64,000 nt of DNA from a virus (lineage: Duplodnaviria; Caudoviricetes), in the IMG/VR virus record IMGVR_UViG_3300010311_001094, positions 1 through 64,000 of that record; one strand, given 5' to 3'. Position numbers and translations under genes: made by a program. The notes below the pieces were generated by a model. The model did not search any database, was not told where the DNA came from, and worked only from the letters and a program-made list of their open reading frames with translations. Of this stretch, positions 19,735 through 58,919 are shown piece by piece (position 1 is the first letter of the stretch; every line of letters starts with the position of its first letter).

Positions 19735-19767
19735 ATAGCAGACCTCCTTCCTCGTTTATCAGCTACC

Positions 19768-19796
19768 ATATTACCACCTTATTTCGGTTCAGTCAA
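19768..19796 (-). promoter_or_regulatory. Sigma-A promoter of the prophage LSR pair
   Basis: TTGACT-N17-TAATAT with TGG extension. Confidence 0.65.
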
Positions 19797-19952
19797 CGGT
19801 ATTTTGACAAATATTGTGCCGATTTTAGGGCGGTATTTCTCCCTCATCTTTGTATCAATTACGGCGTATTCATCAGCGGTCAGCAAGCCTTGTTTCGCCA
19901 TTTTTCGCACAAGACTCATTGTGACATGATACTTAAAATCATTCTGTTCCAT
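19779..19952 (-). CDS. Small SHOCT-like protein preceding the recombinases
   Basis: MEQNDFKYHVTMSLVRKMAKQGLLTADEYAVIDTKMREKYRP; GGAGG RBS. Confidence 0.7.
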   Translation of the reverse strand: MEQNDFKYHVTMSLVRKMAKQGLLTADEYAVIDTKMREKYRPKIGTIFVKIPLTEPK

Positions 19953-45106: not shown

Positions 45107-45254
45107 CCGCATCACTCCTTTTCTCAAAAAATCTGCATAAAGAAAAGGCCTGCGTGCTGCAAGCCTCTCCTATGTATATCCACCTTGAATTTATATGTGT
45201 GTCCGTCTTGGTTTGGATGGGCGGCTTAATGCTACCGCCCACCGACCGTTCTAT

Positions 45255-45483
45255 TTACTTGTACTCGTACATCAGGATCGCAAGGGCAATCTCCGCAGCC
45301 TCGTTTTGCTCGGGTACATCCTCGCCTCTGTCGTAGTTGTAGATGACCTTGCCATTCTCCTTGAGTGTCAGTTTACTGATTCTGCCCTCGTTGATGCCGT
45401 ACTGGCTGCCCCCGTCGTAGACCTTTGCCCAGTAGTGAACCACCGTCTTGCCTTCCTTGGTCGGTGCCAGAATCGTGCCACAT
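45255..45483 (-). pseudogene. Small phage protein, frameshifted near its start
   Basis: RBS plus ATG TGG CAC GA at 45483 is out of frame with TILAPTKEGKTVVHYWAKVYD..YGINEGRISKL..NYDRG. Confidence 0.6.
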
Positions 45484-45625
45484 AGTGTTTACCTCGTTCT
45501 TTCGTAGTTTTCGGCTCGGTTTCCCGTTCCGTTGTACACACTATAACTCTTTTCGGCAGATATATCAAGCGGCTAAACTACCAGAATGTGCAAGGCGATT
45601 TTTTGTCGGTTGTTGTACATATTAT
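45484..45625 (-). promoter_or_regulatory. Regulatory cassette copy A
   Basis: TTGATA-N17-TATAGT; leader ACAACGGAACGGGAAACCG; upstream bipartite motif. Confidence 0.75.
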
Positions 45626-45739
45626 GCCTTGCCGCAGGAGGCACACAAATGCGCCGTGTGGGCGGCTTTTCGCAGGGGCAAGCTGTACGCATCTCCCCGG
45701 CACCGCCCCACACGAGGCAACGTGGTGCGTGTGTCGTCG

Positions 45740-45919
45740 CTATCCGCCGTACTCTTCCAAGTATGCGTTCACGCAGTCGCCGTAGCCGAGCTGTTCAAGC
45801 TCCTTCGGTTCAAAGACATCCAGCGGCGTTTTCATCACTTCTCGCTCCGTCCATGTTCCCGTGGCCGACAGGTTTGCGATGACTGCGGTCAGCATTTCAA
45901 GCTGTGCGTATGTATCCAT
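45740..45919 (-). CDS. Small hypothetical protein
   Basis: MDTYAQLEML..; AGGAGG RBS. Confidence 0.6.
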   Translation of the reverse strand: MDTYAQLEMLTAVIANLSATGTWTEREVMKTPLDVFEPKELEQLGYGDCVNAYLEEYGG

Positions 45920-45981
45920 GTTCTTTCCTCCTTCGGGATTGGCAGCCCCTCCCTGCGGAAGGGCTGCGCTGTTCCGTTTGG

Positions 45982-46347
45982 TTACTTGCTCTTGCATCCT
46001 GCCTCGTAGGTATCCTTGAGGGCGGCTTCCAGCCCCCAGACCGAAACCTCGATGAAGTCCTCGCTGTCGCAGTGGCGGGCTTCAAGGTCTCCGCGCTCCT
46101 GCACCGTGATCAGGTGCTTTGCTGCGATCTCGAAGAGCTGTTTGTCGATGCCTGTCAGCGGATGCTCGGCTCTGAAAATCTCCTGCTCGGTTTTGGCAAG
46201 GGCGGCGTTTGTGTTTGCAAGTGCCTGCGCTCTGCTGATCCCGAAAAGCTCAAGGCAGTCCGCTTCGGTCATTCCCTCAAGGGCGGCTTTGCCGTTCTGC
46301 AGCATCTTCAGCTTGGCAACTGCGGCTTTCATTTCCTTCTTTGTCAT
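45982..46347 (-). CDS. DUF6900-like phage protein
   Basis: IAAKHL..GDLEARHCDSEDFIEVSVWGLEAAL. Confidence 0.7.
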   Translation of the reverse strand: MTKKEMKAAVAKLKMLQNGKAALEGMTEADCLELFGISRAQALANTNAALAKTEQEIFRAEHPLTGIDKQLFEIAAKHLITVQERGDLEARHCDSEDFIEVSVWGLEAALKDTYEAGCKSK

Positions 46348-46490
46348 GGTGGTTTACCTCCGTGTTTTGTATTCGGTGGGCGTTTGCCCTTCCGTTGTGT
46401 AGCATATTACCATGATCTTTCCGGAATAGCAAGCGGCTAAATGTTCAGAACAAAATCGGCGTATCTGCGCCATTTGTTGTATACATAGCA
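46348..46490 (-). promoter_or_regulatory. Regulatory cassette copy B
   Basis: TTGCTA-N17-TAATAT; leader ACAACGGAAGGGCAAACGCCCACCG. Confidence 0.8.
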
Positions 46491-46612
46491 CCAAGCCCAC
46501 AGGAGGCACACAAACGCGCCGTGTGAGGCGGCTTTCCGCAGGGGCAAGCTTATCGCAGGAAAACCGCACAAAGGACAACGTGGGGCAAGTCAGCCCCGCA
46601 GGGCTGAACCTA

Positions 46613-46996
46613 TCAGTCCTCGGTCGGCGGAAGCCATGCTCCTTTTTCCTCATCGAAAAGGTAGTAATACGGAATGCCCCAGTCATCGCTCATCAGGGAA
46701 ACAACGCTCTTGTGGGTGACCGCAGGCTGCATCGGCTCTTTGCGGTCGCGGTGGTAAGCAACCGTCACACCATCGGCAGGCTTTTCGAAGCTGTGCGGCT
46801 CATCCGCATCGGGAGCAAGGCGCTCGCCGAGGATGCTGATGTCTCCAAGGGCAAGCAGTGCCTTGACCTTCTCGGCGGTGTTATAATGCTCGGTGAGGAT
46901 GGGCATCTGGTGTTCGGGGTAGCCGTCCCAATGGCAGTAGATTGTCTCCGTGACGCCGTCCTGATGCAGAATTCCGACTCTTGAATTCGTACTCAT
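46613..46996 (-). CDS. Phage hypothetical protein (IYCHWDGYP motif)
   Basis: MSTNSRVG..IYCHWDGYPEH..LGDISILG; GGAGG RBS. Confidence 0.7.
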   Translation of the reverse strand: MSTNSRVGILHQDGVTETIYCHWDGYPEHQMPILTEHYNTAEKVKALLALGDISILGERLAPDADEPHSFEKPADGVTVAYHRDRKEPMQPAVTHKSVVSLMSDDWGIPYYYLFDEEKGAWLPPTED

Positions 46997-47064
46997 GTTC
47001 GTAAACCTCCATGTTTTTTTTTCTGCGGTAAGCCCTCCCCGCAGGAAGGGCTCCGCTGTTTTGC

Positions 47065-47385
47065 TTATGCTCTCTTCACATCGACCAGCCACTCTGCTTC
47101 CTTGTGGGCGATGCCCGTAGCCTTCTCGGTAATGCTGCTGTCCTCATCGATGTAATGCAGTCCCTTGCCGACCTTAACGAATCTCACATTCTCGTAGCCC
47201 TCGATGATGGTGCGGTAAACGTAACCGCTGCGGCTCTCGCCATCATAGCTCTTGCCGTCCCAACCGTTGAAGGTAAAGGTGACACGCTCTGCAGTCTTGC
47301 AGAAGAGGCTCTCGAAGTCCTCGCGGGTGATCGCCGTGTTGGCATCAATCAGGTTCAGGCTCTTTCTCAGTGTGTAGGGGTTCAT
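47065..47385 (-). CDS. Hypothetical protein
   Basis: 106 aa; FNGWDGKSYDGESR; GGAGG RBS downstream of cassette promoter. Confidence 0.7.
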   Translation of the reverse strand: MNPYTLRKSLNLIDANTAITREDFESLFCKTAERVTFTFNGWDGKSYDGESRSGYVYRTIIEGYENVRFVKVGKGLHYIDEDSSITEKATGIAHKEAEWLVDVKRA

Positions 47386-47537
47386 GGTGTTATCCTCCGT
47401 TTCGTTTTTCGGTAGGCGTTCTGCCCTTCCGTTGTGTCACATATTACCATGATCCTGCTGATAAGTCCACGCCTATGTGCAAAATAAAACGTAGAAGAAT
47501 CGCCGATCTCAGCCTTTCGTATTGTAGGATTTACACA
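47386..47537 (-). promoter_or_regulatory. Regulatory cassette copy C
   Basis: TGGACT-N17-TAATAT; leader ACAACGGAAGGGCAGAACGCCTACCG. Confidence 0.78.
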
Positions 47538-47587
47538 TGAGGAAAAGGGGGAGGGGGAGCAGAGCCGAAGCCCTGCTCCTGTCGATA

Positions 47588-48058
47588 TCAGTTCACCTTG
47601 AAAAGGATGCCCTGTGCCGTTTCGTATTCTTCCTCGCCCCAGCGCAGGCTCTTCTTGGTGATGGTGTGCGTTCCGACCATCGTGCAGCCTTCTGCAATAA
47701 ATCCGTAGATGTTCTCCATCAGCGCCGTGCTCTGATTGGTGATCGTGAACTCGGTGATGCCTAGCTTGCGGAGCGTTTCGATGAAATCGTGGAATTCCTT
47801 GTCCCAGCAGTAATCGCTCATCTCGAACTCGTCACCGTCGTTCTCGCGGCGCATCTTGTACACCCAGTAGGCTTTCATCTCACCGCCGCTGTAGGGGTAA
47901 GGACCCGCCGCCTTCTCCTCAGCGTACCAAGCGTCCATCTCCGGGCTGTCGTAGCCGTGGGCTTCGGCAATCTGAGCCTTGCGCTCGGCGCGCTCCTTTT
48001 TGGCGCGTTCATAGGCGGCGCACTGGAAGGTCATCTCCTCAAAGTAGCTGTCGTTCAT
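47588..48058 (-). CDS. Hypothetical phage protein
   Basis: MNDSYFEEM..FIETLRKLGITEFTITNQSTALMENI. Confidence 0.7.
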   Translation of the reverse strand: MNDSYFEEMTFQCAAYERAKKERAERKAQIAEAHGYDSPEMDAWYAEEKAAGPYPYSGGEMKAYWVYKMRRENDGDEFEMSDYCWDKEFHDFIETLRKLGITEFTITNQSTALMENIYGFIAEGCTMVGTHTITKKSLRWGEEEYETAQGILFKVN

Positions 48059-48213
48059 GTTCGTATCCTCCATGTTATGAATTCCGGTGGGCTGTCTGCC
48101 CCTGCCGTTGTGTAGCATATTACCATGATCCCGGCGATATGTCCACGCCTATGTGCAAAATAAATCGTAGAAGAATCGCCGTTTTCAGCAAGCTGAACAG
48201 GTACATATACACA
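48059..48213 (-). promoter_or_regulatory. Regulatory cassette copy D
   Basis: TGGACA-N17-TAATAT; leader ACAACGGCAGGGGCAGACAGCCCACCG; about 40 bp near-identical to copy C. Confidence 0.78.
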
Positions 48214-48316
48214 AGCCCACAGTTTGCGCCAGAACGCGCCGTGTCACGCCCGGAAAGTGGGGGATAAGTTATCCCTGAGAATGCGGAAAGGGGCTGTAAT
48301 GCCCCTTTATGTCGCC

Positions 48317-48520
48317 TTATTCGTCGTTGTACTTCTCGTGGATGATGCCGAGGATCTTGTCCTGTTCCTCGATGCTGATGCCCATGCTTTCGAGTGCCTC
48401 CCTCGTGCCGCAGTCCGGGCAGATGATCGTGTCGTTGTCGTAGCGGGATAGGGCAGGGCGCTCGGTGTAGGTGCGTCCGCATTTCGGACATGTACGCTTT
48501 TCAAAAACTTGTTCTTTCAT
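48317..48520 (-). CDS. Small zinc-finger protein
   Basis: CPKCGRTYTERPALSRYDNDTIICPDCGTREAL. Confidence 0.75.
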   Translation of the reverse strand: MKEQVFEKRTCPKCGRTYTERPALSRYDNDTIICPDCGTREALESMGISIEEQDKILGIIHEKYNDE

Positions 48521-48522
48521 TT

Positions 48523-48984
48523 TCAGTCCTCCTTTGTGCTTCTCATGTATGCCCTGTCAAGGTACTTCAAATCAAATCCGAAGTTGCGGTAGCCTTCCTC
48601 GCAGGTGCGGATGTAGGTCATTGACGGGATCGCAATCTCACGCTCCTCGTGCATGATGTAGACAAATGCCGTGACCTTTTTGGTCTTGCCGTTTGCCAGC
48701 CTGATTGGCAGGCGGACTTCCTTCTTGTAGTAGAAGTTCGGGTAGCCCTCGTAGATGTCGAGGTGCTTCTCATCGTCGGCTGTCACTTCCCACACGGCGA
48801 CCGGAACAAGCCCGCCGTCCTTCGGCTCGATGGTGAGGTACGCTCCCGTCTTGCTGCCCTTGAAGAGCAGTTCGTAGTCAGGAATCGCGGAAATGCCGAT
48901 GGGCTTTGCGCCTGGGCAGCGGAATCGCATCTGGCGGATGTTGAGGTTGCTGCCGTAGGCTATGTAGTATTTTTTCTTGTTCAT
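48523..48984 (-). CDS. Gamma-glutamylcyclotransferase (AIG2-like)
   Basis: YIAYGSNLN..QMRFRCPGA..LDIYEGYPNFY. Confidence 0.88.
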   Translation of the reverse strand: MNKKKYYIAYGSNLNIRQMRFRCPGAKPIGISAIPDYELLFKGSKTGAYLTIEPKDGGLVPVAVWEVTADDEKHLDIYEGYPNFYYKKEVRLPIRLANGKTKKVTAFVYIMHEEREIAIPSMTYIRTCEEGYRNFGFDLKYLDRAYMRSTKED

Positions 48985-49115
48985 GCTATGTTCTCCTTTG
49001 CGTTTTTTCCTTGCGGTAGTGCTATGTTAACTCATTTCGGCGGCATTATCAAGCGAGTAAATGAACAGATCATCGAGGGCGATTCTGTGCCGTATGTTGT
49101 GCATTTTATGCCTTG
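48985..49115 (-). promoter_or_regulatory. Regulatory cassette copy E
   Basis: TTGATA-N17-TAACAT; upstream (plus strand) TAAATGAACAGAT-N26-TTGTGCAT. Confidence 0.7.
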
Positions 49116-49317
49116 CCTACATTTGCGTTGTGTGGCGCGGTTGACTGAGATGGGATACCGATTCGGAGGATACCCTTTCCGCCCCACACGGGGGTGCGGG
49201 TTGCCAGTGGCAACCTCTGCGAAGCAGAAGCACCGACCGAGGCGAGAGCCGAGACCGTGGCGGCTGTGTGCGCCGCCGTGCCGTTCCGCTTGTTCTTCCG
49301 CCCCGAAGGGCAGGCCT

Positions 49318-50262
49318 TTAAGATCTGCCGAAGCGGAAGCTGTTGTCGCCCGTAAGATTCTCAGTGAGGACCTCTCTCGCCGTTGCGAATTCATCCCCGA
49401 TGAATCCCATTCTCATCAGCCAAGTCCGCATGGCGAACTTTTTGTTTTCCTTCTGCTGTTCCTTGGGGCTGGCGCTCCGCAGGTCCTTTGCCATCTGGCT
49501 CATTGCGAGGCAGAGCTGAATGTAGCTCTTGAGCTTGCCTGCGTGGAGCCCGTTCTGCTTGCCGTTGGAAGGCGGTGCGAACTGGAAAAGTCTGAACTCG
49601 ACCGTGCCTTTGGTGAAGGTAGCGTGGAGGTTGAGCATGTGATAGCGGCTGTCGTTGTAGTGGTGGGTTCTGCCGTATTCGCAGCCCTGTGCGCCGTACC
49701 AGATGTCCGCAAGCTGTGCCATCGTGGTGGGCTTTTTGCGGTTGAGCTGTTCAAGGAATCTCGGGTCAACTGTTCTGCAGTAGCGGCGCATTCTGCTCTG
49801 GTCTACTCTGATTGCCTCGGCGATCAGGGTTTCGTGGCTTGCCATCAGGTTTGCGAGGTTTCTCAAGGTCTGCGGTGTGTGTCCCTGGGCTCCAATGTGG
49901 CAGTGGACTCCACATCCCCGCGTGTAATCACTGCGCGCTCCTGCCTTCCTGAGCTTTCTCACAAGCTCCTGCAGGGTTTCGATGTCTGCGTAGTGCAGGA
50001 TCGGTGTGACCAGTTCGCACTTTTCGCTGTCGGGGCCTGCGATGCTGACGTCCTTCTGGAATTTCCACTCGCGTCCCTGTGCATCCCATGCGCTGTAGGT
50101 TTCGTAGCCGTTGCGGTGTGCGGTGTACTCGGTGCGGCCGGTGCCGAAGAAGTCGGCGGCGAGCTTTGCGGCAGCCTTGCGGGTGATGTTGTTCATCTCG
50201 ATCTCCACCCCTATCGACTGCTCCTTCGTTCTGCTCTGCTGCTGTGCGGTCTTCTCAGTCAT
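49318..50262 (-). CDS. Putative amidoligase (Amidoligase_2, COOH-NH2 ligase fold)
   Basis: IGVEIEM, DVSI, CELVTP, CGVHCHIG, RYHMLN, TVEFRLF. Confidence 0.88.
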   Translation of the reverse strand: MTEKTAQQQSRTKEQSIGVEIEMNNITRKAAAKLAADFFGTGRTEYTAHRNGYETYSAWDAQGREWKFQKDVSIAGPDSEKCELVTPILHYADIETLQELVRKLRKAGARSDYTRGCGVHCHIGAQGHTPQTLRNLANLMASHETLIAEAIRVDQSRMRRYCRTVDPRFLEQLNRKKPTTMAQLADIWYGAQGCEYGRTHHYNDSRYHMLNLHATFTKGTVEFRLFQFAPPSNGKQNGLHAGKLKSYIQLCLAMSQMAKDLRSASPKEQQKENKKFAMRTWLMRMGFIGDEFATAREVLTENLTGDNSFRFGRS

Positions 50263-50407
50263 TTTTGTATCCTCCGATTCGGTTTTTCGGTGGGCGTTTG
50301 CCCTTCCGTTGTGTCACATGTTACCGTCTTTCGGAGGATATAGCAAGCCGCTAAAACCACAGAATATCGAGGAAAATACATTGCGCATATCTGGTGTATG
50401 TGTACAC
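50263..50407 (-). promoter_or_regulatory. Regulatory cassette copy F
   Basis: TTGCTA-N17-TAACAT; 29 bp (50286-50314) identical to copy B (46372-46400). Confidence 0.8.
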
Positions 50408-50459
50408 TTGATATCCTTGAAATTCTATGGTATACTCGGATACAATGGAATAGGCTCTT

Positions 50460-50708
50460 CTATTTTCCGGGGCCCCCATTGCGGTCAGAAATGACCTGGA
50501 AATCATCCACGCCTTCTATAAGGGAGAGCGTTCTGCCGTTCTGCCAGACCATGTGTATGTTGCCGCCGTCATCGACCATCTGAACCTCGCCGATTGTTCC
50601 GGGCGGCACTGGTGCGTAGGGATCGTCCATGTGCTTCAGTCGGATAAGGGTGCCTTCGGGATAACGCTCCCGCAAGGCTCTGAGCTGTCGTTCATTCGGA
50701 AACTGCAT
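50460..50708 (-). CDS. DUF4314-like protein
   Basis: LRERYPEGTLIRLKHMDDPYAPVPPGTIGEV..VDDGGNIHMVW. Confidence 0.8.
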   Translation of the reverse strand: MQFPNERQLRALRERYPEGTLIRLKHMDDPYAPVPPGTIGEVQMVDDGGNIHMVWQNGRTLSLIEGVDDFQVISDRNGGPGK

Positions 50709-51600
50709 TGTTCTCTTCCTCCTCGTTCTGTTCTTCTTTGGCAACATCACGCTTTGCCTTCTGCTTTGCCTCCCAGCGTTCACGCTCCTCATCGTTGCGG
50801 AATGCGGTGTGTCCGGAAAGCGGAGCCATGAGGCGCTTGCGGTCAACCTTGAAGTCAGCACCGTTCAGCCCAAGGCGGATCAGCCAGATGCGGAGTGCGT
50901 ACTTTTCGTTGCTGTCATCGACATCCTTTGCTTGCACACGTTTCTGCGTGATCGCCATCTTGTTCATAGCTGCGGCGAGCTTGGTGAAGGTCTTCACCGT
51001 CTCGGCATCCTGTGCTGCACCGAAGCCGTCAAAGATCAGTTTGTCATCGGCGAAACGGATGCCCTTCAGTTCGGGATTCGTTTCCTCCCATACTCTGATG
51101 TAGGCGATAAGCTCGTGGATGCTGCGGAAGGTCTTGTCATCGAGGATCGCATCGGCGAGGCTCTTGTCTGCGAAGAACTGTCCGCCGGTCGCCTTGCTGA
51201 GAAGTGCGCCGCGGGAGTGGATCATGCAGATAAGGTTTGTAAGGCTCTGCACCGTGTGCTCTGCAATCGGGAAGCTGATGCTTGCGAGCAGCGGAAATCC
51301 GCTGCTCGGTTCGTCAGGGATATCCGGCTCTGATTCAGCCGAAGCATCCGTTTCTTCCGGCGGTGCTACTGTTTTGCTTTCATATCCTGCCTCTGCAAGC
51401 CCATTCAGTACCTTCTCTACGATATCTGTGTCGATGCGGTCGCTGAAACTGAGGACTGCGTTTTTGTCCAGGGTGAAGAAGTCGATCTGGTATCTGCAGC
51501 CCGGTACACCGAGGTACTTGACCTCTGCTCCTGTCAGCTCGCCGATTTTCTGTGCCAGTGCCTTGCGCTGGCTCTTTTCAATATTGAACTTGATTTCCAT
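50692..51600 (-). CDS. Conserved phage/ICE protein (often labelled virulence-related)
   Basis: RKALAQKIGELTG..YLGVP; NEKYALRIWLIRLGLNG..RKRLMAPLSGHTAFR. Confidence 0.75.
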   Translation of the reverse strand: MEIKFNIEKSQRKALAQKIGELTGAEVKYLGVPGCRYQIDFFTLDKNAVLSFSDRIDTDIVEKVLNGLAEAGYESKTVAPPEETDASAESEPDIPDEPSSGFPLLASISFPIAEHTVQSLTNLICMIHSRGALLSKATGGQFFADKSLADAILDDKTFRSIHELIAYIRVWEETNPELKGIRFADDKLIFDGFGAAQDAETVKTFTKLAAAMNKMAITQKRVQAKDVDDSNEKYALRIWLIRLGLNGADFKVDRKRLMAPLSGHTAFRNDEERERWEAKQKAKRDVAKEEQNEEEENNAVSE

Positions 51601-51757
51601 ATGATTACCTCCGTTTTTACTGCCGCCCCTCAGCCTTGTGCGTTGGGCTGCGGCGTTTTCGTAGTCACATATTACCGTCTTTTGCCCCGGAATGCAAGAC
51701 TGTAAAACGGAGAATGTACGGGGCGTGTCTGCCCTTTAGATTGTGCATAGTACAGAA
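51601..51757 (-). promoter_or_regulatory. Regulatory cassette copy G
   Basis: TTGCAT-N17-TAATAT; upstream (plus strand) TAAAACGGAGAA-N26-TTGTGCAT. Confidence 0.7.
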
Positions 51758-51832
51758 TAGAAAGAAGCCCTGCGGCAGAACATCTGATTTAGTATCAGAA
51801 TGTTCACAATTTGCTGCATGGCTTCTTTATTA

Positions 51833-52171
51833 CTATTTCTTTTTCGGTGCGAAAACCCTGACCGGAACGTGCTGTTCCCGGCAATGGTCTATCACATATT
51901 TCGTGCCGCGTGACTGTCCGTCCCAGAATGCCAGCACCACATCTGCATAGGCGATAATCTCCAGATTCCGTTTCAGCGGGGCGCTTCGTCCGAAGCGTTC
52001 ATAATCCGGCAGAAATTCCTTCAGCGGAATGCCGTGTGCCTTTGCGTATGCCCGTGCATCAGAATCAATACCCCTCGCTCCTCCGCTGACGATCTCTGTG
52101 ATACCCTCCGGCAGATACCGTTCAAGGTCATTCACATGAAGTCCTCGTGAGCCAATAATTGCTATTTTCAT
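51833..52171 (-). CDS. SLOG/YspA-family protein
   Basis: IAIIGSR, IVSGGARGID, APLKRN, AFWDGQSRGT. Confidence 0.85.
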   Translation of the reverse strand: MKIAIIGSRGLHVNDLERYLPEGITEIVSGGARGIDSDARAYAKAHGIPLKEFLPDYERFGRSAPLKRNLEIIAYADVVLAFWDGQSRGTKYVIDHCREQHVPVRVFAPKKK

Positions 52172-52284
52172 ATCGTGCAACTCCTTGTAGATATATTTTA
52201 GATACAATTTATATCCATTTCAAACATTATACCACAGAATAGGTCTAAAATAAAGTCATAATATATCTGAAAGGAATTCGTTTT

Positions 52285-52488
52285 ATGGCTATCAAAAGTG
52301 TATCCATCCGCATTGAACAGGAGATGCTTGATAAACTTCACGTTGTTGCTGACTACGAAGGTCGTTCTGCCAACAGTCAGGTTTTGATCCTGATCCGTGA
52401 TTGCATTGAAAAATATGAGGAAAAGCACGGAAAGATCGAGCTTGGCGGAGACAAGAAATCCGAAATAAGTGTATCTCATCGGCACTGA
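52285..52488 (+). CDS. Arc-family ribbon-helix-helix regulator
   Basis: SVSIRIEQEMLDKLHVVADYEGRSANSQVLILI. Confidence 0.85.
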   Translation: MAIKSVSIRIEQEMLDKLHVVADYEGRSANSQVLILIRDCIEKYEEKHGKIELGGDKKSEISVSHRH

Positions 52489-52541
52489 ACCGACGCAGGT
52501 TCGTCTTTTTCCGATGCTTTCAAAACGGGCGCGTTATGCGT

Positions 52542-54710
52542 TCACTTTTGTGTATCTCTCTGCGCCACCCAAGCGATACCCGAAAGCACGAAGTATGGAA
52601 TCGGCAGTGAGATCCCGTTGCCCCACAGCTTGTACTCTGCGGAATCCGTGTAGGGATCAGCAAGCCATTTCCTGATTTGCTTTTCAGTTTTCGGTTTTCC
52701 CTTGGGGTTTGTGACCCGCCGCCATGTCTCCCAGACCTCCGTCCAGAAGGTGATCTTCTCATCGGTCGGATCGGGAATCGCAAGGTCGGCACACCACCAG
52801 TCGGGGAATCCCTGCAATCTGGCGCACTCCACCGGAGTCAGACGACGAACGATATATACCGGCTCGTCATTCGGAAGGTCGTTCACAAGCGGAGGATCCT
52901 TCCAGTCGGATGCGACCAGCGTGTTTGCCTGTTCATGTGCGGCGACTGTGTGGTGAGAATTCTTGCTTGTGCTGTAGTGATCGGCATCCGGTGCTGCGAC
53001 AGCATGCCTGTCTGTTGTGTTCAGCGTAAAGCACACATCTTCATTGATACCATCACCCTGCGGTCCGTTCTGATCGGCGCGACCGATCATCGAGCCTTGC
53101 AGTGCATAGGTCTCCTTCTCGGCTACCACAACAGCCTGCTGATTGTCTCCGGCATTTGCACGGAGCGTGCCGCTTTTGCCGTCACTGTATACATGACCGC
53201 CGATACGGGATGCCGCCCCCGGTTCGAGAGCCACCACCGCAACTCCTCCGTGATTGCTGTCCGGGTTCGCCTCGCTCGTATCAAGGCATCGGGAAATGTC
53301 TGTCGGGTAACAATGCCCACGAGCATTTTTCGTGCCGTCCGATGTGAAACGCACATCGAAGGTCTCCGGTGCAGGTGCTACCACGCAGATGCCGCCCTGA
53401 TTCGATGTCACAGAATTTCCACCACTTCGGTCGAGCGTTCTGCTTGTGGTCGCCTCATAGAATCCGCTGTGCGGATTGTCGGACATCATCGCATTGGAAT
53501 GCTTGCTGCATACACCGAAGGCTTTGATCTCTGGCTGAAAGAGTGTCTGGTCGTTGTTGGTAGCAAGCGTAGCAGATTTATCAGTTTGCCAGAGAGCGCC
53601 CTTGCCGCCGCCTTCGCAGCCTGACCTGATTTTCAGCGTGATCGGTTCAGCGACAAGCGGTACATTGTTGCCGCCCGTCCCGGCTCTGCTGCAAAGTGTC
53701 TGGCAGGTGTCGTCCTCACGGATCTTCACCCGACCGTCCGTCGGATGGTTTTCGACCGAGAGTGCGGCGGGAACAACTCCTGCCCTCAGTGTCGGGGAGA
53801 CTTCCTCCTCGTATCCGATGCTGCGTGCTTTGGCACTGTGTTCTGTGGAGAATCCCGCCGCATGAAGTACCGCCGGATGGTTGCCGTGATCCTGTGCGAC
53901 CAGTGCGAGAGCCTTGTTCTCGGTGATGCCGACGCCGCTGTTGCCCTGTGTATTCAGGCAGAGGGTTCCACCTCCAGCGTCAGACCGCCCGCCTGTCTCT
54001 CCAGTGCCTTCTTCAGCACCTCCGGCAGCTCCTTGCCACGCACGGAAGCCCTGCGGAGTATACCCAGACACGCCTTCGGACTTAAATAGTATTTCTCCGG
54101 CACTTCCGCCAGCAAAATCTGCGACAAGGTAGATTCTTGCTCTGCGTTGGGGGACACCCCAGTATTGAGCATCGAAAACTCGGTAAGCCACGCTCCATCC
54201 GTCTCCCAGATACACGTCTGATTTTGCCCATCTGTGATTTTCAGGCGCAGGCACCTCGATCCCTTTTTCTTTAACTCCGATAACTGCTTCGAGGACAGCC
54301 TTGAAGTCGTTTCCTCCGTTGGATGAGAAAGCGCCGGGGACATTTTCCCAGACGCAGTATCGCGGATATCGTCCATTTGTTGCATCCCTCATTTCTTTGA
54401 TGATGCGGATCGCCTGAAAGAACAGGTTCGACCGATCACCGTCATGGATTCCGGCACGCTTGCCCGCAATAGACAGGTCCTGACAAGGACTGCCTAAGGT
54501 GATGATATCCACCGGCGGAAGCTCTGCGCCGTTTAGCGTAGATACATCACCGTAGTGCTGCACCTGCGGCAGCCGCTTGTGCGTGACAAGCACCGGAAAA
54601 GGTTCAATTTCGCTGCTCCACCTTGGCTCGATCCCTGCGAGGATGCCACCAAGCGGAAAGCCCCCGGAGCCGTCAAACAGGCTGCCGAGGGTCAAGTGTT
54701 TCTTATCCAT
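52542..54710 (-). CDS. DNA (cytosine-5) methyltransferase with long variable region
   Basis: SLFDGSGGF, GSPCQDLS, WENVPG, PQRRARI, RRLTPVECARLQGFPD, LWGNG. Confidence 0.92.
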   Translation of the reverse strand: MDKKHLTLGSLFDGSGGFPLGGILAGIEPRWSSEIEPFPVLVTHKRLPQVQHYGDVSTLNGAELPPVDIITLGSPCQDLSIAGKRAGIHDGDRSNLFFQAIRIIKEMRDATNGRYPRYCVWENVPGAFSSNGGNDFKAVLEAVIGVKEKGIEVPAPENHRWAKSDVYLGDGWSVAYRVFDAQYWGVPQRRARIYLVADFAGGSAGEILFKSEGVSGYTPQGFRAWQGAAGGAEEGTGETGGRSDAGGGTLCLNTQGNSGVGITENKALALVAQDHGNHPAVLHAAGFSTEHSAKARSIGYEEEVSPTLRAGVVPAALSVENHPTDGRVKIREDDTCQTLCSRAGTGGNNVPLVAEPITLKIRSGCEGGGKGALWQTDKSATLATNNDQTLFQPEIKAFGVCSKHSNAMMSDNPHSGFYEATTSRTLDRSGGNSVTSNQGGICVVAPAPETFDVRFTSDGTKNARGHCYPTDISRCLDTSEANPDSNHGGVAVVALEPGAASRIGGHVYSDGKSGTLRANAGDNQQAVVVAEKETYALQGSMIGRADQNGPQGDGINEDVCFTLNTTDRHAVAAPDADHYSTSKNSHHTVAAHEQANTLVASDWKDPPLVNDLPNDEPVYIVRRLTPVECARLQGFPDWWCADLAIPDPTDEKITFWTEVWETWRRVTNPKGKPKTEKQIRKWLADPYTDSAEYKLWGNGISLPIPYFVLSGIAWVAQRDTQK
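53954..54376 (-). CDS. Nested out-of-frame gene resembling the M.EcoHK31I beta polypeptide
   Basis: Alternative-frame ORF with GAGG RBS; ESTLSQIL..VPEKYYLSPKACLGILRRASVRGKELP. Confidence 0.7.
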   Translation of the reverse strand: MDDIRDTASGKMSPALSHPTEETTSRLSSKQLSELKKKGSRCLRLKITDGQNQTCIWETDGAWLTEFSMLNTGVSPNAEQESTLSQILLAEVPEKYYLSPKACLGILRRASVRGKELPEVLKKALERQAGGLTLEVEPSA

Positions 54711-54918
54711 CATCCGCCTCCTTTGCGTTCCTGCACAGATTGAGGAAGTCCTCCCTGATCTGCTCTCTGTAAGCCATCGCCACCGCAGGAATCTCGTGTG
54801 TATACACCGGTCTGCCGATAAAGCCGGAAAGATAGTCATACAGATATTTCAGATCATCGCCCTTGAGCATAGAAATCTCTGTGTAAGCGGTCACGACCGC
54901 GCATTCATGCTTCGTCAT
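54703..54918 (-). CDS. Small hypothetical protein
   Basis: MTKHECAVVTAYT..IGRPVYTHE; overlaps both neighbours. Confidence 0.7.
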   Translation of the reverse strand: MTKHECAVVTAYTEISMLKGDDLKYLYDYLSGFIGRPVYTHEIPAVAMAYREQIREDFLNLCRNAKEADDG

Positions 54919-55684
54919 CGGTATCCTCCCCAAGCATCAGTTCACAGGCTTTATTATAAAAATCCCGGCTGACTTCAAAGCCGTAGCTGTGTCTGCCAAG
55001 CTCCCTCGCCGCACGCAGCGTTGAGCCGGAACCGGCGCAGGGATCGATGACCACATCACCCTCGTCGGTAAATATCCCGATCAGACGTTTCAGTACGGAA
55101 ATCGGCTTCTGCGAAGGATGTATCTTCGGGATATCCTTGCCGTCCCGCATCCAGTCAAAATGGTCGAAGATCATGTGCCTCTTGCCGTATGCATCGGTAT
55201 TGCGGAACTTCGGCAGCTTTCCCCGATACAGCACCAGAGCATACTCCGTTGCGCCCACGATCCTCATGTTCGCCTTCAGCACCTGCGGACTGTAATTCTT
55301 CATAAAGCACAAAAACTGATACTTCTTGAAGCCGTATTTCTCCGCCTGCCGGATGACCTCGGGTATCTGCTGAAAGGCACAGAATACGATCATGCAGGGA
55401 GCATCCTTCTCACCTTTGGACGGCTCCTTTTTGAGCAGCCGGTTACAGAAGGCGAAGTATTCAGCGATGTTGAAGGTGTAATCCGTGTGGAATGCAGCCT
55501 TGTGCGCTTTGCTGCTTTCACCGTTCTGATTGTCACCGTTCACATACCAGTCGGGACGGGATGCGTAAAAGTCCCCGCCGATATTGTAGGGAATGTCTGC
55601 GATGACGAGTTGTGCTTTCGGAATGCAGTAGGATTTGAAGTTCTGGAAATTATCGTGATACAGCTCACATTTCACATCAGCCAT
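54905..55684 (-). CDS. DNA methyltransferase (N6-A/N4-C, beta class)
   Basis: IADIPY, HPSQKP, VIDPCAGSGST. Confidence 0.88.
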   Translation of the reverse strand: MADVKCELYHDNFQNFKSYCIPKAQLVIADIPYNIGGDFYASRPDWYVNGDNQNGESSKAHKAAFHTDYTFNIAEYFAFCNRLLKKEPSKGEKDAPCMIVFCAFQQIPEVIRQAEKYGFKKYQFLCFMKNYSPQVLKANMRIVGATEYALVLYRGKLPKFRNTDAYGKRHMIFDHFDWMRDGKDIPKIHPSQKPISVLKRLIGIFTDEGDVVIDPCAGSGSTLRAARELGRHSYGFEVSRDFYNKACELMLGEDTDDEA

Positions 55685-56480
55685 CGACATCCTCCAGTCT
55701 CTTTTTCAGCGCCTTGCGGAATTCCTTGGTGCCGAGCTGATTTCCGTCCGTCTGCCATTCCAGTTCAAAATCAAAACGAGCCTCCAGTTTCCGGACTGAC
55801 CATCCGGGCTTGAAGGTGCGCCATGTTGCATCATCCCATGCTCTGAGCTGTTTCCAGAGATCAGGGAAATCGAAATACAGAATCCGCAGCTCGTTCAGCG
55901 GCTGCAGCGGACAGCACCAACAGGATACTCGTCCGAACTTCTCATACAGACCGCCCCAGTCGTAGCCGCGTTCCTTGCAGTATTGCAGGCAGTCGGCTTC
56001 GGTCATGCCCCACTCCACAAGCGGCAGCCGGACCTTCGGTCGGCTGTTGCACTTGTGCGTGATGCGCTCCGTCTCATCGGCGGCGATGCCGATGTACTCG
56101 ATCACCGTGTACTTCTTTCGCAGTTCGCTGAGGAATTTCTCACGGGGTACTGTTTTCAGAAGATTGGTACACCACCGCATCAGCGGTCCCGCCCAACTGT
56201 ATCCGGTCTTGCCGCGCAGTTCCGGCTTTTTCCGTTTGATTGGCTTATGGAGCATGAGATATTCAAAGGTATATTCGCTCTTGACAGTCGTAACCTTCAT
56301 GCCGGTATCCTGTTCGACTTTGTGTACATGGTCATACAGTGCCGGGAATTCTAATCCGGTATCGCAAAACAGCACCAGATCAACCTGCATTCCCATTTCT
56401 AACATCTTCAGGAGCATCGCAGTGCTGTCTTTCCCGCCGCTGAAGGAGACCACATGAAGCAGAGGTTTCAGTTCACCCAT
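55677..56480 (-). CDS. PAPS-reductase-family (PP-loop) protein
   Basis: SFSGGKDS, DTGLEFP, RWCT..K, RVSCWCCP. Confidence 0.85.
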   Translation of the reverse strand: MGELKPLLHVVSFSGGKDSTAMLLKMLEMGMQVDLVLFCDTGLEFPALYDHVHKVEQDTGMKVTTVKSEYTFEYLMLHKPIKRKKPELRGKTGYSWAGPLMRWCTNLLKTVPREKFLSELRKKYTVIEYIGIAADETERITHKCNSRPKVRLPLVEWGMTEADCLQYCKERGYDWGGLYEKFGRVSCWCCPLQPLNELRILYFDFPDLWKQLRAWDDATWRTFKPGWSVRKLEARFDFELEWQTDGNQLGTKEFRKALKKRLEDVDG

Positions 56481-57756
56481 TCGTATCACCACCCTCTGCT
56501 GTCGGCATCGCTGCCACCGCTTCATCGAAGGAAAGCTTCTGTCCGTCACGGATGACATACACATCATCGTACTTGCCCTCGCGGAATTTGATATACCGCT
56601 TCACTTGAACGTCCACAAACTTTTCATCCAATTCTACAGCTCTGCATTTTCGGTCGAGCTGTTCACAGGCGATCATGGTAGAACCGGAACCGTGGAAGCC
56701 GTCCAGCACAATGCCGTTTGTCATGGTGGACTGCTTGATGAGATATGCCATCAGCGGTACAGGCTTTGCAGTCGGATGTCCCTCACCCTCGGCTTTGGAG
56801 CTTTTCGGACGGTCGAAGTCAAAGCAGGTGGTCTGCTTACGGTCACCGTACCATGTGTGCTTGCCGTCCTTTTTCCAGCCGTAGATCACAGGCTCGAAGT
56901 TCTGCTGATAGTCCGTCCTCGACAGCACAAGCCTGTCCTTGCGCCAGACCAATCCGCAAGAAACACGGAATCCGGCATCCTCGAAAGCGTCATAGAACAC
57001 CCTCGATTTTGATGTCGCGTAGAAAACATACACCGCAGAATCATCTGCAAGGTTCTCTTTGAAACAGGCAAATGCGCTTTTCAGGAATTCATAGCCTTCC
57101 TTATCCGAAAGGTCATCGTTCTTGATGCTGCCGGAGGTATTGCTGTATGCTACGAGGTACGGCGGATCGGTCAGCAGGAGATTTGCTTTTTCACCGTTCA
57201 TAAGCAGCTCGTAGGTTTCCGACTTGGTGCTGTCACCGCAGACGATACGGTGCTTGCCCAGAATCCACAGGTCACCGAGTTTTGAGAAGGTCGGCTGTTT
57301 CAGCTCTTCTTCAATATCAAAGTCATCTTCCTTGATGTCTTTATTGTGTACCTGATTGAAAAGCTGCTCGATCTCCGGCGGATCAAAGCCGGTCTTTCCG
57401 AGGTCGAAGTCGCTGTCCTGAATGTCCTGCAACAGTTCAGCCAGAAGGCTCTCGTCCCATGCGCCGGTGATCTTGTTGAGCGCAATGTTCAGCGCCTTTT
57501 CTCTGACCTTGTCGATGTCCACCACCGCACAGGGTACCTCGGTGTATCCGAGCGCCATCGCTACGGTCAGTCGCTGATGCCCGCCGATGATGGTCATGTC
57601 GGCGTTGACTACCAGCGGATCGGCAAAGCCGAATTCCTCGATGCTGTTTTTGATCTTTTCGTATTCCTTGTCGCCGGGCTTCAGCTTTTTGCGCGGGTTA
57701 TATGCCGCAGGCTTCAGCTCCGTGACAGGGATCACACGAAGTTCTGCTGTCTTCAT
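56473..57756 (-). CDS. ParB-like domain fused to N6/N4 DNA methyltransferase
   Basis: PAAYNPRK..IIGGHQRL; LTDPPY; HPTAKPV; LDGFHGSGST. Confidence 0.9.
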   Translation of the reverse strand: MKTAELRVIPVTELKPAAYNPRKKLKPGDKEYEKIKNSIEEFGFADPLVVNADMTIIGGHQRLTVAMALGYTEVPCAVVDIDKVREKALNIALNKITGAWDESLLAELLQDIQDSDFDLGKTGFDPPEIEQLFNQVHNKDIKEDDFDIEEELKQPTFSKLGDLWILGKHRIVCGDSTKSETYELLMNGEKANLLLTDPPYLVAYSNTSGSIKNDDLSDKEGYEFLKSAFACFKENLADDSAVYVFYATSKSRVFYDAFEDAGFRVSCGLVWRKDRLVLSRTDYQQNFEPVIYGWKKDGKHTWYGDRKQTTCFDFDRPKSSKAEGEGHPTAKPVPLMAYLIKQSTMTNGIVLDGFHGSGSTMIACEQLDRKCRAVELDEKFVDVQVKRYIKFREGKYDDVYVIRDGQKLSFDEAVAAMPTAEGGDTNG

Positions 57757-57757
57757 C

Positions 57758-58092
57758 TCATCCCTCCACATAGTACAACTGCCGTAGCTTTGCGGCTCGT
57801 TTTAAGTTCTGCTCTTTCAGCGCAGCCATCTCGCGGAGCGACTGTTCACTCAGCGGCTTGATCTTGTGCTTTTCCGCAAGCGTTCTGTATCTGCGGATAT
57901 CCTTGCAGAGGTCTGCATCCGTAACGGATACGAGATACGCCTTGCCGCAATAGTCGCAGCGGAAGAAGCTGTATTCGATCTCACCCTCACGCTGCGTCAG
58001 TGTTTCCGGCACAAATGCACATCCGCACTTATCGCACCGCACTGCATTCTTCAGCACAATGCGAGGTTTGCTTTTCTTGTTTTTTCGCTCAT
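57758..58092 (-). CDS. Zinc-ribbon hypothetical protein; RBS-associated ATG is out of frame by one base
   Basis: CDKCG..CDYCG; AGGAAAGGAG plus ATG 58092 would join the ORF with one extra A in the A6 run at 58080-58085. Confidence 0.6.
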
Positions 58093-58109
58093 ACGGCTCC
58101 TTTCCTGGT

Positions 58110-58251
58110 CATGATCTGCACAAAGAATGTGCATTATCTGCGCTCGATGTTCTGTACATTTAGCCGCTTGCTATAATACCGAAGCTATGGTAATATGGGT
58201 ACAACGGAGGCGGGAAAGCCCCGCCAAATGCAGAACACGGAGGATACAGAT
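58110..58251 (+). promoter_or_regulatory. Regulatory cassette copy H (inverted orientation)
   Basis: TTGCTA-N17-TAATAT; leader ACAACGGAGGCGGGAAAGCCCCGCC; GGAGG. Confidence 0.8.
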
Positions 58252-58440
58252 ATGAAGTACGAGGTTATCATCAACAACTACCAGAAGGGCACACAGCTCA
58301 AGACCGCCATGCAGGATCATGTGATTCTGCTCGAAAAGATCGACCGGAATCACCACCGGGTGGTCTACGAGCTGGAGAACGACCGCCAGCGGCAGTTCAT
58401 CGAGAAGGTGTACGCCCGGAAGCTCCGCCCCCTCGACTGA
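58252..58440 (+). CDS. Small hypothetical protein driven by cassette H
   Basis: MKYEVIINNYQKG.. 62 aa; RBS and downstream hairpin. Confidence 0.7.
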   Translation: MKYEVIINNYQKGTQLKTAMQDHVILLEKIDRNHHRVVYELENDRQRQFIEKVYARKLRPLD

Positions 58441-58448
58441 GGGCGGGG

Positions 58449-58919
58449 TTACCAGACTACCTCACCGCCGCGCAGGCGGAGGATGCGCTGATTCTGGCTG
58501 CCCCGGAAAGCAAGCGAGATATCCTTCTGTTCCAGCAGAAACGGACCGTCAACAAGTACATCAACGTACCTGAGAATTTCCTCGCCCTGCAGCATCTCGT
58601 AGGTGTATCCGGAGAACAGCCAAGTGTCCGAATTCGGAGACTCAAGTTTTATCCGTTTCAGAAACGGGATCAGGACTTCCTCATTTTCCTCCTCGCAGGG
58701 TTCACCGCCGAGAACAGAAAGCCCCTGTATCCACGAGGGACGCAGGGCTTCAATGATCTCATCTTCAGTTTCTTTAGTGAACGGCTTGCCGTAGCCGAAA
58801 TCCCAGGCTCCGGGGTTATGACAGCCCTTGCAGTGATTCCGGCATCCGCTGACAAACAGCGAGACTCTGACACCTTCGCCATTAGCGATGTCGTTTTTGT
58901 TCAGACCGCAGTAATTCAA
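58449..58919 (-). CDS. nrdG: Anaerobic ribonucleotide reductase activase
   Basis: DIANGEGVRVSLFVSGCRNHCKGCHN radical-SAM motif, LGGEP, FRGSQNQ; TTG start overlapping the nrdD stop. Confidence 0.9.
   Translation of the reverse strand: MNYCGLNKNDIANGEGVRVSLFVSGCRNHCKGCHNPGAWDFGYGKPFTKETEDEIIEALRPSWIQGLSVLGGEPCEEENEEVLIPFLKRIKLESPNSDTWLFSGYTYEMLQGEEILRYVDVLVDGPFLLEQKDISLAFRGSQNQRILRLRGGEVVW

Follow-up and report, generated by a model that had tools for sequence, protein, structure and literature searches.

A repeated promoter-leader module at the head of small gene units in a Ca. Heliusvirales-type provirus

Comparable systems in phages and bacteria

The closest published analogy to the array described here, and the one that the sequence-only reading of this DNA had already drawn, is that of the PeSLs, the promoter-early stem-loops of T4-type phages (Arbiol et al., 2010, PMC2839356; Comeau et al., 2014, PMC4122927). 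At the level of sequence, both comprise many copies of a host-type promoter with a stem-loop and a ribosome site. The copies stand before small genes of unassigned function in a variable region of the genome, and in both cases genes between copies are inserted, deleted or replaced among relatives, with boundaries in the repeats in some clear cases of the array (L086, L033). The build is nevertheless different. The PeSL stem-loop is a terminator placed before the start site, inside the promoter or close around it, and the PeSL upstream region is AT-rich. Another trait of PeSLs is the mini-circle that arises when neighboring copies recombine. In the array, the hairpin lies in the predicted transcript with an A-tract after it, separate hairpins follow the stop codons, and the upstream region carries a conserved GC-containing word (class 1) or another conserved word (class 2). 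Given its place after the predicted start and the A-tract behind it, the hairpin is not a terminator stem-loop of the PeSL type. The setting also differs: a Gram-positive host and a temperate Heliusvirales-type phage.

Stabilizers of the 5′ end of mRNA are known in Firmicutes, such as the ermC and aprE leaders and a segment of phage SP82 early RNA, and in Bacillus subtilis they protect mRNA against 5′-end-dependent decay. They share with the array a stable stem-loop within a few nucleotides of the 5′ end (predicted, in the array) and a strong ribosome site nearby, but in the array leaders the flanks and an internal loop are conserved as well. Lambda-type nut sites, made of boxA and the boxB hairpin, similarly place a conserved linear word before a short, purine-looped hairpin near the start of a transcript that has to run past terminators. 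They are, however, few per genome and need an N-type protein, whereas the array has many copies and its loop sequences vary. The start-associated sequences of Cluster K mycobacteriophages are another case of a repeated, phage-lineage-specific motif by many gene starts, but these are short motifs at the ribosome site, with neither a promoter nor a covarying hairpin.

The morons of temperate phages were reportedly described by Juhala et al. in 2000. Like the array units (as predicted), each has its own promoter and terminating hairpin and lies between core modules, and units are present or absent between related phages; in the case of the array, relative L039 is without unit B and relative L010 without unit H. 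Morons are expressed from the repressed prophage and are usually single, unrelated insertions of deviating GC content with unrelated promoters, in contrast to the array, where up to a dozen units have one homologous control module and a GC content that matches the neighbors (morons are reviewed in PMC3594210).

The cassettes and their place in the provirus

The window, as we call the whole stretch of 64,000 nucleotides that was analyzed (IMG/VR record IMGVR_UViG_3300010311_001094, positions 1 to 64,000), comes from a provirus of a gut or rumen bacterium of the Ruminococcus type. It is a Ca. Heliusvirales-type provirus, and the host belongs to the Oscillospiraceae. Relatives of the phage carry the Ca. 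Heliusvirales annotation and their hosts are Oscillospiraceae/Ruminococcus MAGs; the phages are not specifically of the kind that had been named for a scan, clostridial phages and ICEs. The array lies between DNA-modification genes on one side and terminase on the other, in the variable ("hyperplastic") part of the temperate phage genome. Its GC content is 0.53–0.55, against 0.53 in the adjacent methylase module.

Eight modules (A to H) had been claimed here, and covariance-model matches place every one of them where it was proposed. As read from the sequence, all eight have a TTG or TGG −35, a 17-bp spacer and a TAATAT-type −10. The further anatomy also holds: in six copies an ACAACGG leader follows, with a hairpin in two parts, then an A-rich stretch, then a strong ribosome site, and E and G are ACTAC variants. 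The features are as follows (bits are covariance-model scores; MFE and z are from folding).

45137–45166, minus strand: intrinsic-terminator-like hairpin in the gap between the array and terS (8-bp stem, T-rich tail)
45255–45483, minus strand: cargo of cassette A, a DUF7678 gene
45481–45583, minus strand: cassette A (70.6 bits; MFE −10.6, z −3.6), with −35 TTGATA, 17 bp, −10 TATAGT, ACAACGG, hairpin (inner stem CGG/CCG, GAAA loop), ribosome site and ATG
45740–46347, minus strand: cargo of cassette B, a DUF6900 gene (45982–46347), then a GC hairpin, then a 59-codon ORF (45740–45919)
46345–46447, minus strand: cassette B, full promoter and leader (99.8 bits; MFE −11.7, z −2.1)
46613–47385, minus strand: cargo of cassette C, a 106-codon gene (47065–47385) and a 127-codon gene (46613–46996)
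47383–47483, minus strand: cassette C, class-2 upstream half (TGGACT −35, extended −10) and leader (89.5 bits; MFE −8.4, z −1.9)
47588–48058, minus strand: cargo of cassette D, a DUF7698 gene, then a terminator-like hairpin within 47484–47587
48056–48159, minus strand: cassette D, class-2 upstream half and leader (82.2 bits; MFE −11.2, z −2.1)
48317–48984, minus strand: cargo of cassette E, a GGACT/AIG2-like cyclotransferase gene (48523–48984) and a 67-codon zinc-ribbon gene (48317–48520)
48982–49067, minus strand: cassette E, degenerate, promoter kept, ACTAC-type leader without hairpin (34.2 bits; MFE −1.1, z +0.5)
49318–50262, minus strand: cargo of cassette F, an Amidoligase_2 gene
50260–50361, minus strand: cassette F, full promoter (TAACAT −10) and leader (88.7 bits; MFE −11.6, z −2.3)
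50460–51600, minus strand: cargo of cassette G, a 302-codon gene and a DUF4314 gene
51598–51712, minus strand: cassette G, degenerate, promoter kept, ACTAC-type leader, longer weak hairpin (22.8 bits; hairpin z −0.5)
51761–51828, minus strand: strong terminator-like hairpin after a SLOG gene, directly upstream of cassette G (z −4.93)
58153–58254, plus strand: cassette H, full promoter and leader (81.2 bits; MFE −13.0, z −2.35)
58252–58447, plus strand: cargo of cassette H, a 62-codon gene of unassigned function and a GC hairpin directly next to the stop codon of nrdG

The next best match of the model in the window (19.3 bits) is a plain promoter without leader, and the 93-kb provirus record holds no further copy at E < 0.001. 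E and G still head genes, although the hairpin is lost in E and different in G. An 8-nt deletion, as compared with close relatives, puts the ATG of cassette A (45483) out of frame. The cargo of C contains a leader-only remnant without promoter (46994–47044, a partial match to model positions 54–104). Cassette H is inverted, 6.5 kb from the array, and has an orthologue in relative G001; the unit of cassette, gene and GC hairpin is flanked by nrdG on one side and by a zinc-ribbon/methylase operon on the other. Upstream of H there is a 17-bp palindrome, which the orthologue retains. GC hairpins follow the stop codons of units, not all of them with a U-tract. Apart from terminator-like hairpins, the other long intergenic spacers gave modest z values (−0.5 to −2) when folded as RNA.

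The cassettes head unrelated small genes, as had been noticed, and they form a real promoter-leader family, found before 20 gene families. By Pfam, PHROGs, PADLOC and ESM Atlas the cargo belongs to domain-of-unknown-function families, amidoligase, GGACT and zinc ribbon, and the 302-codon gene of G matches part of the "amidoligase enzyme" PHROG. The suggestion that these are early anti-defense genes finds no backing in the four resources.

The modules are conserved across the phage lineage and almost entirely confined to a single genome region. With the covariance model, 186 copies were detected in 42 related sequences, and six in PV036433.1; in whole records they cluster in one region of about 10 kb, with a few outside (e.g., the conserved inverted copy). 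A blastn search of cassette B against 50,697 GenBank phage records gave no match. The region has no Rfam match at gathering score, and E ≤ 5 gives only two chance-level matches. We found no published description of the array in the literature, and the Heliusvirales phylogeny paper makes no mention of promoters, intergenic repeats or amidoligase.

The leader hairpin and its possible roles

The window contains ACAACGG 17 times, where 6.6 would be expected; 6 of the 17 are in cassettes. The extended −35 word is present 7 times vs. 1.4 expected. B and F share an identical leader core of 29 nt, as claimed; the likeness of C and D also stands, but at about 40 bp its length had been put too short (90 nt at 89% identity). 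Covariation of the leader stem had been proposed as a check, and compensatory changes do keep the hairpin in both stems, in agreement with folding energy. In an alignment that was fitted to the model structure and whose copies are related by descent, 88.7% of cells are paired vs. 77.8 in shuffles, and double-change cells number 45 vs. 7.4; none of 500 shuffles matches the observed values, and slid controls reach at most 55%. When 91 distinct cores were folded independently, the mean MFE was −9.1 kcal/mol and the mean z −3.46, with the hairpin starting at the same offset in 69 of them. The outer stem is CGG/CCG, CGC/GCG or CCG/CGG, and the inner stem is of at least 10 types. An AA internal loop is conserved in 51 of 89 cores, and 80 of 89 have AAA, AAU or GAA as the tail 3′ of the hairpin. 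An intrinsic terminator or attenuator in the leader was considered and rejected: the A-rich tail stands where a U-tract would be needed. Pairing of the 3′ strand of the outer stem with the ribosome site was likewise rejected, because the flank of the ribosome site is constant while the outer stem changes. In the six full copies of the window, the ribosome site is unpaired in centroid structures. The amidoligase leader has a variant with a structured insertion of 62 nt.

The modules also evolve slowly. Cassette identity exceeds that of four-fold sites in the downstream orthologous gene in 83% of 422 pairs, and this holds between distant relatives too.

We consider it probable that the array consists of independent moron-like transcription units, each headed by a portable control module. 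Such a module would be a host sigma-A-type promoter (−35, 17 bp, often an extended −10) followed by a predicted start in ACAACGG, a two-part hairpin that begins about 2 nt into the predicted transcript, then an A-rich stretch without structure and a strong ribosome-binding site; a GC-rich hairpin 3′ of the last stop codon would end the unit. The position of the start within ACAACGG is predicted; among 42 JGI metagenome contigs with a leader-only pattern, sought as transcript-like contigs, none begins there. A generic sigma-70 consensus scan counts against the promoter reading, in that it shows no enrichment (8 found vs. 9.9 expected); what is significant is the repeated conserved module, not the consensus matches. 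The promoters would fire with host RNA polymerase without a phage factor, and the 5′-proximal hairpin would mainly shield the mRNA from 5′-end-dependent decay, leaving the ribosome site open. It should be noted that the conserved AA internal loop and the conserved flanks exceed what a plain stabilizer needs.

This excess over the demands of helix stability, in single-stranded flanks as well as in the internal loop, would fit a leader that serves as an RNA operator, bound by a phage or host protein that regulates all cassettes together. Although unlikely, this is the alternative that we take most seriously. The protein might, with similarly limited likelihood, be a translational repressor acting in shut-off (T4 RegA-like) or use the leader as an antiterminator loading site (lambda nut-like). 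In the nut-like version the polymerase would pass the hairpins between units and the terminator before terS. The hairpin that ends each unit and the terminator-like hairpin before terS, with no recognizable promoter after it, fit such a scheme, and so do the slow evolution of the module and loops that are mostly GNRA-like or A-rich. However, the loops vary widely in sequence and length (at least 14 types), which is unusual for a loop recognized by protein, E has no hairpin, and gene conversion among copies could also explain the conservation. Were the leader an operator, it could tentatively be seen as a novel cis-regulatory RNA motif from an abundant order of gut phages, read by one trans-acting factor: first ACAACGG, then an outer stem, the AA internal loop, an inner stem that varies and bears a purine-rich loop, and finally an A-rich tail. 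There is some chance, if a small one, that it controls, as one regulon, as many as a dozen accessory genes with promoters of their own, through timed shut-off or antitermination into late genes. The 62-nt insertion in the amidoligase leader would then be an elaborated form of the same element.

The module could instead act as DNA, either as the operator of a phage repressor or activator or as the promoter of a phage-directed RNA polymerase, with the inverted repeat serving as a protein-binding dyad. We regard this as improbable. The conserved word directly upstream of the −35, GC-containing in class 1 and different in class 2, is unlike the AT-rich UP element of a plain strong promoter, and 42 of 117 copies (vs. 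1.65% in controls) have a second conserved box upstream, at a constant distance. Both speak for a DNA site, as does the retention of the palindrome upstream of H. Yet the stem sequences change while pairing is kept, which suits RNA or single-strand structure rather than a dyad recognized by its sequence; the promoter elements (−35, spacer and −10) are a good fit to sigma-A, with no extra factor needed; and the same downstream half is found with several unrelated classes of upstream half. Directly upstream of the −35, the segment has no significant structure overall (mean z −0.34); a small PeSL-like terminator there was considered and rejected, as it is seen in some copies only.

Gain, loss and re-pairing of units

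Promoter halves, leaders and genes have been re-paired. One gene family is found behind five promoter classes, identical leader cores stand before different gene families, and in orthologous pairs the promoter class differs in about one-third, even at 85–97% protein identity. Gene content differs among relatives, as anticipated. Units may be lost cleanly, as in close relative L039, where 45895–46505 is absent. Neither end of this deletion is in a cassette: one falls in a gene, the other in a different intergenic element. In close relatives L086 and L033 the breakpoints are inside cassettes, and chimeric cassettes occur; in L111 they are in neighboring intergenic repeats. The expectation that gene content switches precisely at the repeats does not hold as a rule: 15 of 74 distinct alignment ends fall in cassettes vs. 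13% expected (p 0.05), and many fall in other intergenic repeats or within genes. Overall, the enrichment of breakpoints in cassettes is weak. The description of the array as recombination-shuffled is apt for gain, loss and re-pairing but not for free shuffling. Shared genes mostly keep their relative order, and the pattern is therefore one of gain, loss and replacement of genes and of promoter/leader re-pairing.

In the moron-like reading that we prefer, the repeated modules would act as homology patches, by which cassettes may be deleted, replaced or given another promoter or leader. The weak breakpoint enrichment and the L039 deletion, with its ends outside cassettes, count against this part. 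The first of these, together with the identical leader cores before different genes, would also suit repeats that are only a trace of tandem duplication and gene conversion, with ordinary promoters, no selected function of the leader and no role in recombination. This has little to recommend it, given the compensatory changes in both stems, the fixed offset of the hairpin, a conservation above four-fold sites that extends to distant relatives, and the chimeric cassettes in close relatives.

That the cassettes are true mobile elements with a dedicated recombinase, integron-like or transposon-like, is very improbable: H is inverted and away from the array and a promoter-gene-hairpin block can be present or absent as a unit in close relatives, but the mechanism is rejected because there is no recombinase or transposase gene within or adjoining the array and no defined junctions, the indel junctions examined having neither terminal repeats nor target duplications. 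Of the earlier view of H as a mobile unit, the inverted placement outside the array stands; a fresh insertion does not, since the same module, gene and place are found in an 85%-identical relative.

In closing, phages of the Ca. Heliusvirales type, of whose gene expression next to nothing is known, are reported to occur very widely in the guts of humans and animals. For this lineage the module is a marker of the variable region that holds the accessory genes, and it provides a counterpart, in a temperate phage of a Gram-positive host, to the T4 PeSL model, in which repeated control sequences drive modular gene exchange. It is also a testable promoter and 5′ UTR for non-model Oscillospiraceae, and thus a possible expression part. 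Should the leader turn out to bind a regulator, a new phage RNA regulon would thereby be defined.

The eight modules and their setting

The eight promoter-leader modules described in the sequence-only reading are all present, each with a TTG/TGG -35 separated by a constant 17 bp from a -10 of TAATAT, TAACAT or TATAGT; in four of them (B, C, D, and H) a TG extends the -10. In A, B, C, D, F, and H, ACAACGG follows 4-5 nt past the -10, and then come a hairpin, an A-rich stretch and a GGAGG-type ribosome site, the ATG being about 55 nt downstream of ACAACGG. E and G have an ACTAC variant; E is without the hairpin, and that of G is longer and weak. A covariance model, the check proposed in the same reading, was trained on 71 distinct cassettes of relatives and scores the eight copies from 99.8 down to 22.8 bits. 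It gives no match above 19.3 bits in the rest of the window, and no further copy at E < 0.001 in the 93-kb record. The modules and associated elements are as follows.

Modules, partial copies and spacer elements
45481-51712, minus: array of modules A to G
58153-58254, plus: module H
46994-47044, minus: leader-only remnant (hairpin, A-run and ribosome site; model positions 54-104), promoterless, heading a 127-codon gene
19732-19810, minus: strong consensus promoter of the same general type (TTGACT and extended -10), without leader, heading a 471-codon gene
within 47484-47587: GC hairpin between units (z -2.0)
within 51713-51832: strong GC hairpin (z -4.9)
45617-45640, 46480-46500, and 49095-49115: second conserved box, also seen in relatives

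The leader is specific to the array, since the like promoter at 19732-19810 has none. In relatives, the 127-codon gene behind the remnant has a full cassette, with an upstream (promoter) half of class 1 or class 2. The typical unit runs from a stop codon through a GC hairpin, a spacer of 100-300 nt, promoter and leader to one or more genes. The last unit and terS are separated by a terminator-like hairpin with a T-run, as read from the sequence. The second box is found in the spacer of 42 of 117 distinct copies, compared with 1.65% in controls. It resembles the -10 and start-site part of the module, stands at a constant distance upstream of the -35, and may be a second promoter, a relic or a protein site.

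The provirus record is 93 kb long, and the window covers its first 64 kb; nearly all genes are on the minus strand.

Gene order in the direction of transcription
Primase-helicase, family A DNA polymerase, SNF2 helicase, and MetK
nrdD and nrdG
Zinc-ribbon gene, ParB-methylase, PAPS-reductase-like gene, N6/N4 methylase, and 765-codon C5 methylase
SLOG gene
Cassette array
terS (P27-type, read from the sequence), terL, and then structural genes

Several other features of the record were observed. A group II intron domain (38439-38535, minus; Rfam RF00029, 60.9 bits) adjoins a 596-codon ORF (38549-40339) in the phage head-gene region. Beyond the window, in the replication module, a PemK/MazF-like toxin gene lies directly 3′ of a D5-type primase-helicase gene (stretch L121, 6824-7318; record 66824-67318, minus). 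Stretch L122 (record 80121-89686, plus) has a LexA/CI-like HTH and S24 peptidase gene, a Y-family polymerase and a complete type I restriction-modification system; lying at the far end of the record, it may be host flank or another island.

Among named phages, the closest relatives come from the human gut and carry the annotation Ca. Heliusvirales, their hosts being Ruminococcus, Acutalibacteraceae or Lachnospiraceae; they have the amidoligase and cyclotransferase genes in common with the window at about 70% identity. When one genome per prokaryote species was scanned for the exact pattern, the cassette turned up mostly in MAGs of Oscillospiraceae, Ruminococcus and other Clostridia from rumen and gut. 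Three of the 16 matches were labelled as other taxa, two of these probably by chance. In IMG/VR, an initial pattern search yielded many single matches due to chance and about 20 contigs with 2-7 copies; the covariance model finds 186 copies (E < 0.001) in 42 sources. In whole records, the copies are mostly within one stretch of about 10 kb ahead of the terminase, with the exception of a lone inverted copy several kb upstream in one record and an inverted copy at the cluster edge in another.

The lone inverted copy, in relative G001, is the orthologue of H: window 57116-59600 aligns colinearly with that region (85% identity), the 62-codon gene is the same, and the leader stem differs in sequence with pairing kept. 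The 440-bp H block is absent from another relative, L010. A 17-bp palindrome at 58118-58134 (TGCACA, 5 nt, TGTGCA) separates H from the divergent zinc-ribbon/methylase operon; its conservation in the matching region of G001 makes it a candidate operator. In the divergent zinc-ribbon gene (57758-58092, minus), the ATG at 58092 has a good ribosome site, does not share the frame of the 99-codon ORF and is immediately followed by a run of six A, which may reflect a sequencing error or a frameshift; a comparator sequence sought for this start was not found.

Structure and constraint of the leader

On comparative grounds, the leader hairpin is a selected structure. A stem without covariation had been named as a refuting condition; compensatory changes are kept: in a model-guided alignment of 115 distinct copies, standard pairs fill 88.7% of cells (77.8% in column shuffles) and changes on both sides of a pair are seen in 45 cells (7.4 in shuffles), values that none of 500 shuffles reached. 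As a control, sliding the partners by 1-3 columns lowered pairing to 55% or less. Since a model-guided alignment is biased towards its model, 91 distinct leader cores were also folded model-free. Their mean MFE is -9.1 kcal/mol and their mean z is -3.46 relative to shuffles, with z below -1 in 99% of them; the helix starts at a constant offset after CACAA/UACAA in 69 of the 91.

The outer stem is of the type CGG/CCG, CGC/GCG, or CCG/CGG, and the inner stem of at least 10 types. Hairpin loops are purine-rich (GAAA, GGAAA, AGACA, and others), and a 5′ AA internal loop is present in 51 of 89 cores. The ribosome site is unpaired in the centroid structures of the window's full copies. An intrinsic terminator is ruled out, since the tail of the hairpin is A-rich.

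Constraint extends to the module. In 422 cassette pairs heading orthologous genes on different contigs, which are non-independent so that the comparison is descriptive, the cassettes are more alike than the four-fold degenerate sites of their genes in 83%, and where the proteins are 70-85% identical the identities come to 0.69 for cassettes and 0.55 for four-fold sites. This sequence comparison argues against neutral drift. The conservation could stem from purifying selection or from gene conversion between copies.

Cargo genes and mosaicism

Cargo with an assignable family consists of Amidoligase_2, a GGACT/AIG2-like cyclotransferase and a zinc-ribbon protein, to which are added the DUF proteins DUF4314, DUF7698, DUF6900, and DUF7678. 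Four cargo proteins have no Pfam family. For most cargo, PHROGs gave families without known function; PADLOC gave nothing convincing, and ESM Atlas viral hypothetical proteins only. These searches neither back nor argue against the anti-defence role suggested in the sequence-only reading. The 302-codon protein of cassette G (50692-51600, minus) matches positions 156-429 of the 801-position PHROG "amidoligase enzyme," and from this match looks like a domain fused to amidoligases elsewhere. The cassette A gene (DUF7678) is frameshifted within 45455-45483 (minus): 8 nt present in relatives L039, L111, and L065 are missing from the window and from L086, just past codon 4 and between two short direct repeats, so that the ATG behind the cassette no longer enters the conserved frame.

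A 62-nt element (49194-49255, minus) follows the amidoligase coding region, in the 3′ untranslated part; it is cleanly inserted by comparison with L039 and L086, both close relatives. It is known in at least 20 distinct versions from 36 viral contigs (among them L083 4336-4489, L106, L008, L111, L136, and about 30 more from IMG/VR, L182-L213), in most of them in the opposite orientation and inside the loop of the leader hairpin that heads the amidoligase gene. By RNAalifold it is predicted to fold into three hairpins, four pairs of which show compensatory changes, and it matches nothing in Rfam. It is possibly a mobile element of miniature size or a structured element.

Genes and modules are variously combined. 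Among the best 150 copies, 20 gene families stand behind the module; the DUF7678 family follows five different upstream-half classes, and six identical leader cores are paired with different gene families and promoter classes. Promoter class differs in about a third of orthologous gene pairs at 85-97% protein identity. The sequence-only reading asked whether gene content switches precisely at the repeats, and some junctions are clearly inside cassettes. L086 keeps the promoter and leader of D to 9 nt short of the ATG, where one different gene replaces the D cargo and units C and B; L033, another relative, has a C-type promoter fused to an A-type leader and gene, the crossover being within the shared core of about 40 nt. 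However, only 15 of 74 distinct alignment ends are in cassettes (13% expected; p 0.05). Intergenic ends number 41 of the 74, compared with 31% expected. A 1.25-kb insertion in L111 brings extra cassettes and has a duplicated intergenic repeat (45648-45725) at its borders. Promoter B with its gene and hairpin (45895-46505) is missing from L039, in a deletion whose ends fall within the next ORF and in a different intergenic element. The relative order of shared genes is mostly preserved among relatives. From these alignments, the array is fairly described as changing by gain, loss, replacement and re-pairing; junctions are often, not always, in cassettes and the neighboring intergenic repeats.

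Known systems and proposed working

The closest published system is PeSL of T4-type phages (PMC2839356; PMC4122927). Common to both are a repeated host-type promoter with a stem-loop, a place ahead of ORFans in a variable region, and, at least in some relatives, indels between copies. The AT-rich upstream region of PeSL, however, is absent from the array cassettes, and, contrary to the defining features of PeSL, the array stem-loop is inside the predicted transcript and has no terminator tail. The units also match the definition of morons (PMC3594210) in their own promoter and terminator (both predicted) and in patchy presence. Morons, however, have no single homologous control module common to them, whereas the array units have one, and the GC deviation of morons is not seen in the array. 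The leader motif matches no Rfam family, the Heliusvirales phylogeny paper does not mention the cassette motif, and literature searches found no published description of the family.

In sum, the module joins promoter-like elements to a covarying hairpin and a ribosome site; it is conserved, constrained and mosaic between relatives. Whichever the spacing variant, the third base of ACAACGG is 7-8 nt past the -10; the transcript would therefore start about 2 nt ahead of the helix, the predicted start being at that base. In Firmicute mRNA, a stable helix near the 5′ end together with a strong ribosome site nearby protects from 5′-end-dependent decay. Because of this, we favor a stabilizer-type module: by analogy, the cassette would be a portable strong-expression module of promoter, 5′ stabilizer and ribosome site. 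We leave room for the main rival, in which the leader is the binding site of a regulator, as the leader flanks and the internal loop are conserved. That the hairpin is a DNA dyad operator is unlikely, because it is pairing rather than sequence that is conserved.

The cassette family is real, lineage-wide and regulatory, and the mechanism given for it is a proposed one. As a portable expression module, each copy would make its accessory gene an autonomous unit, and the hairpins would insulate the units from their neighbors and from the late operon.
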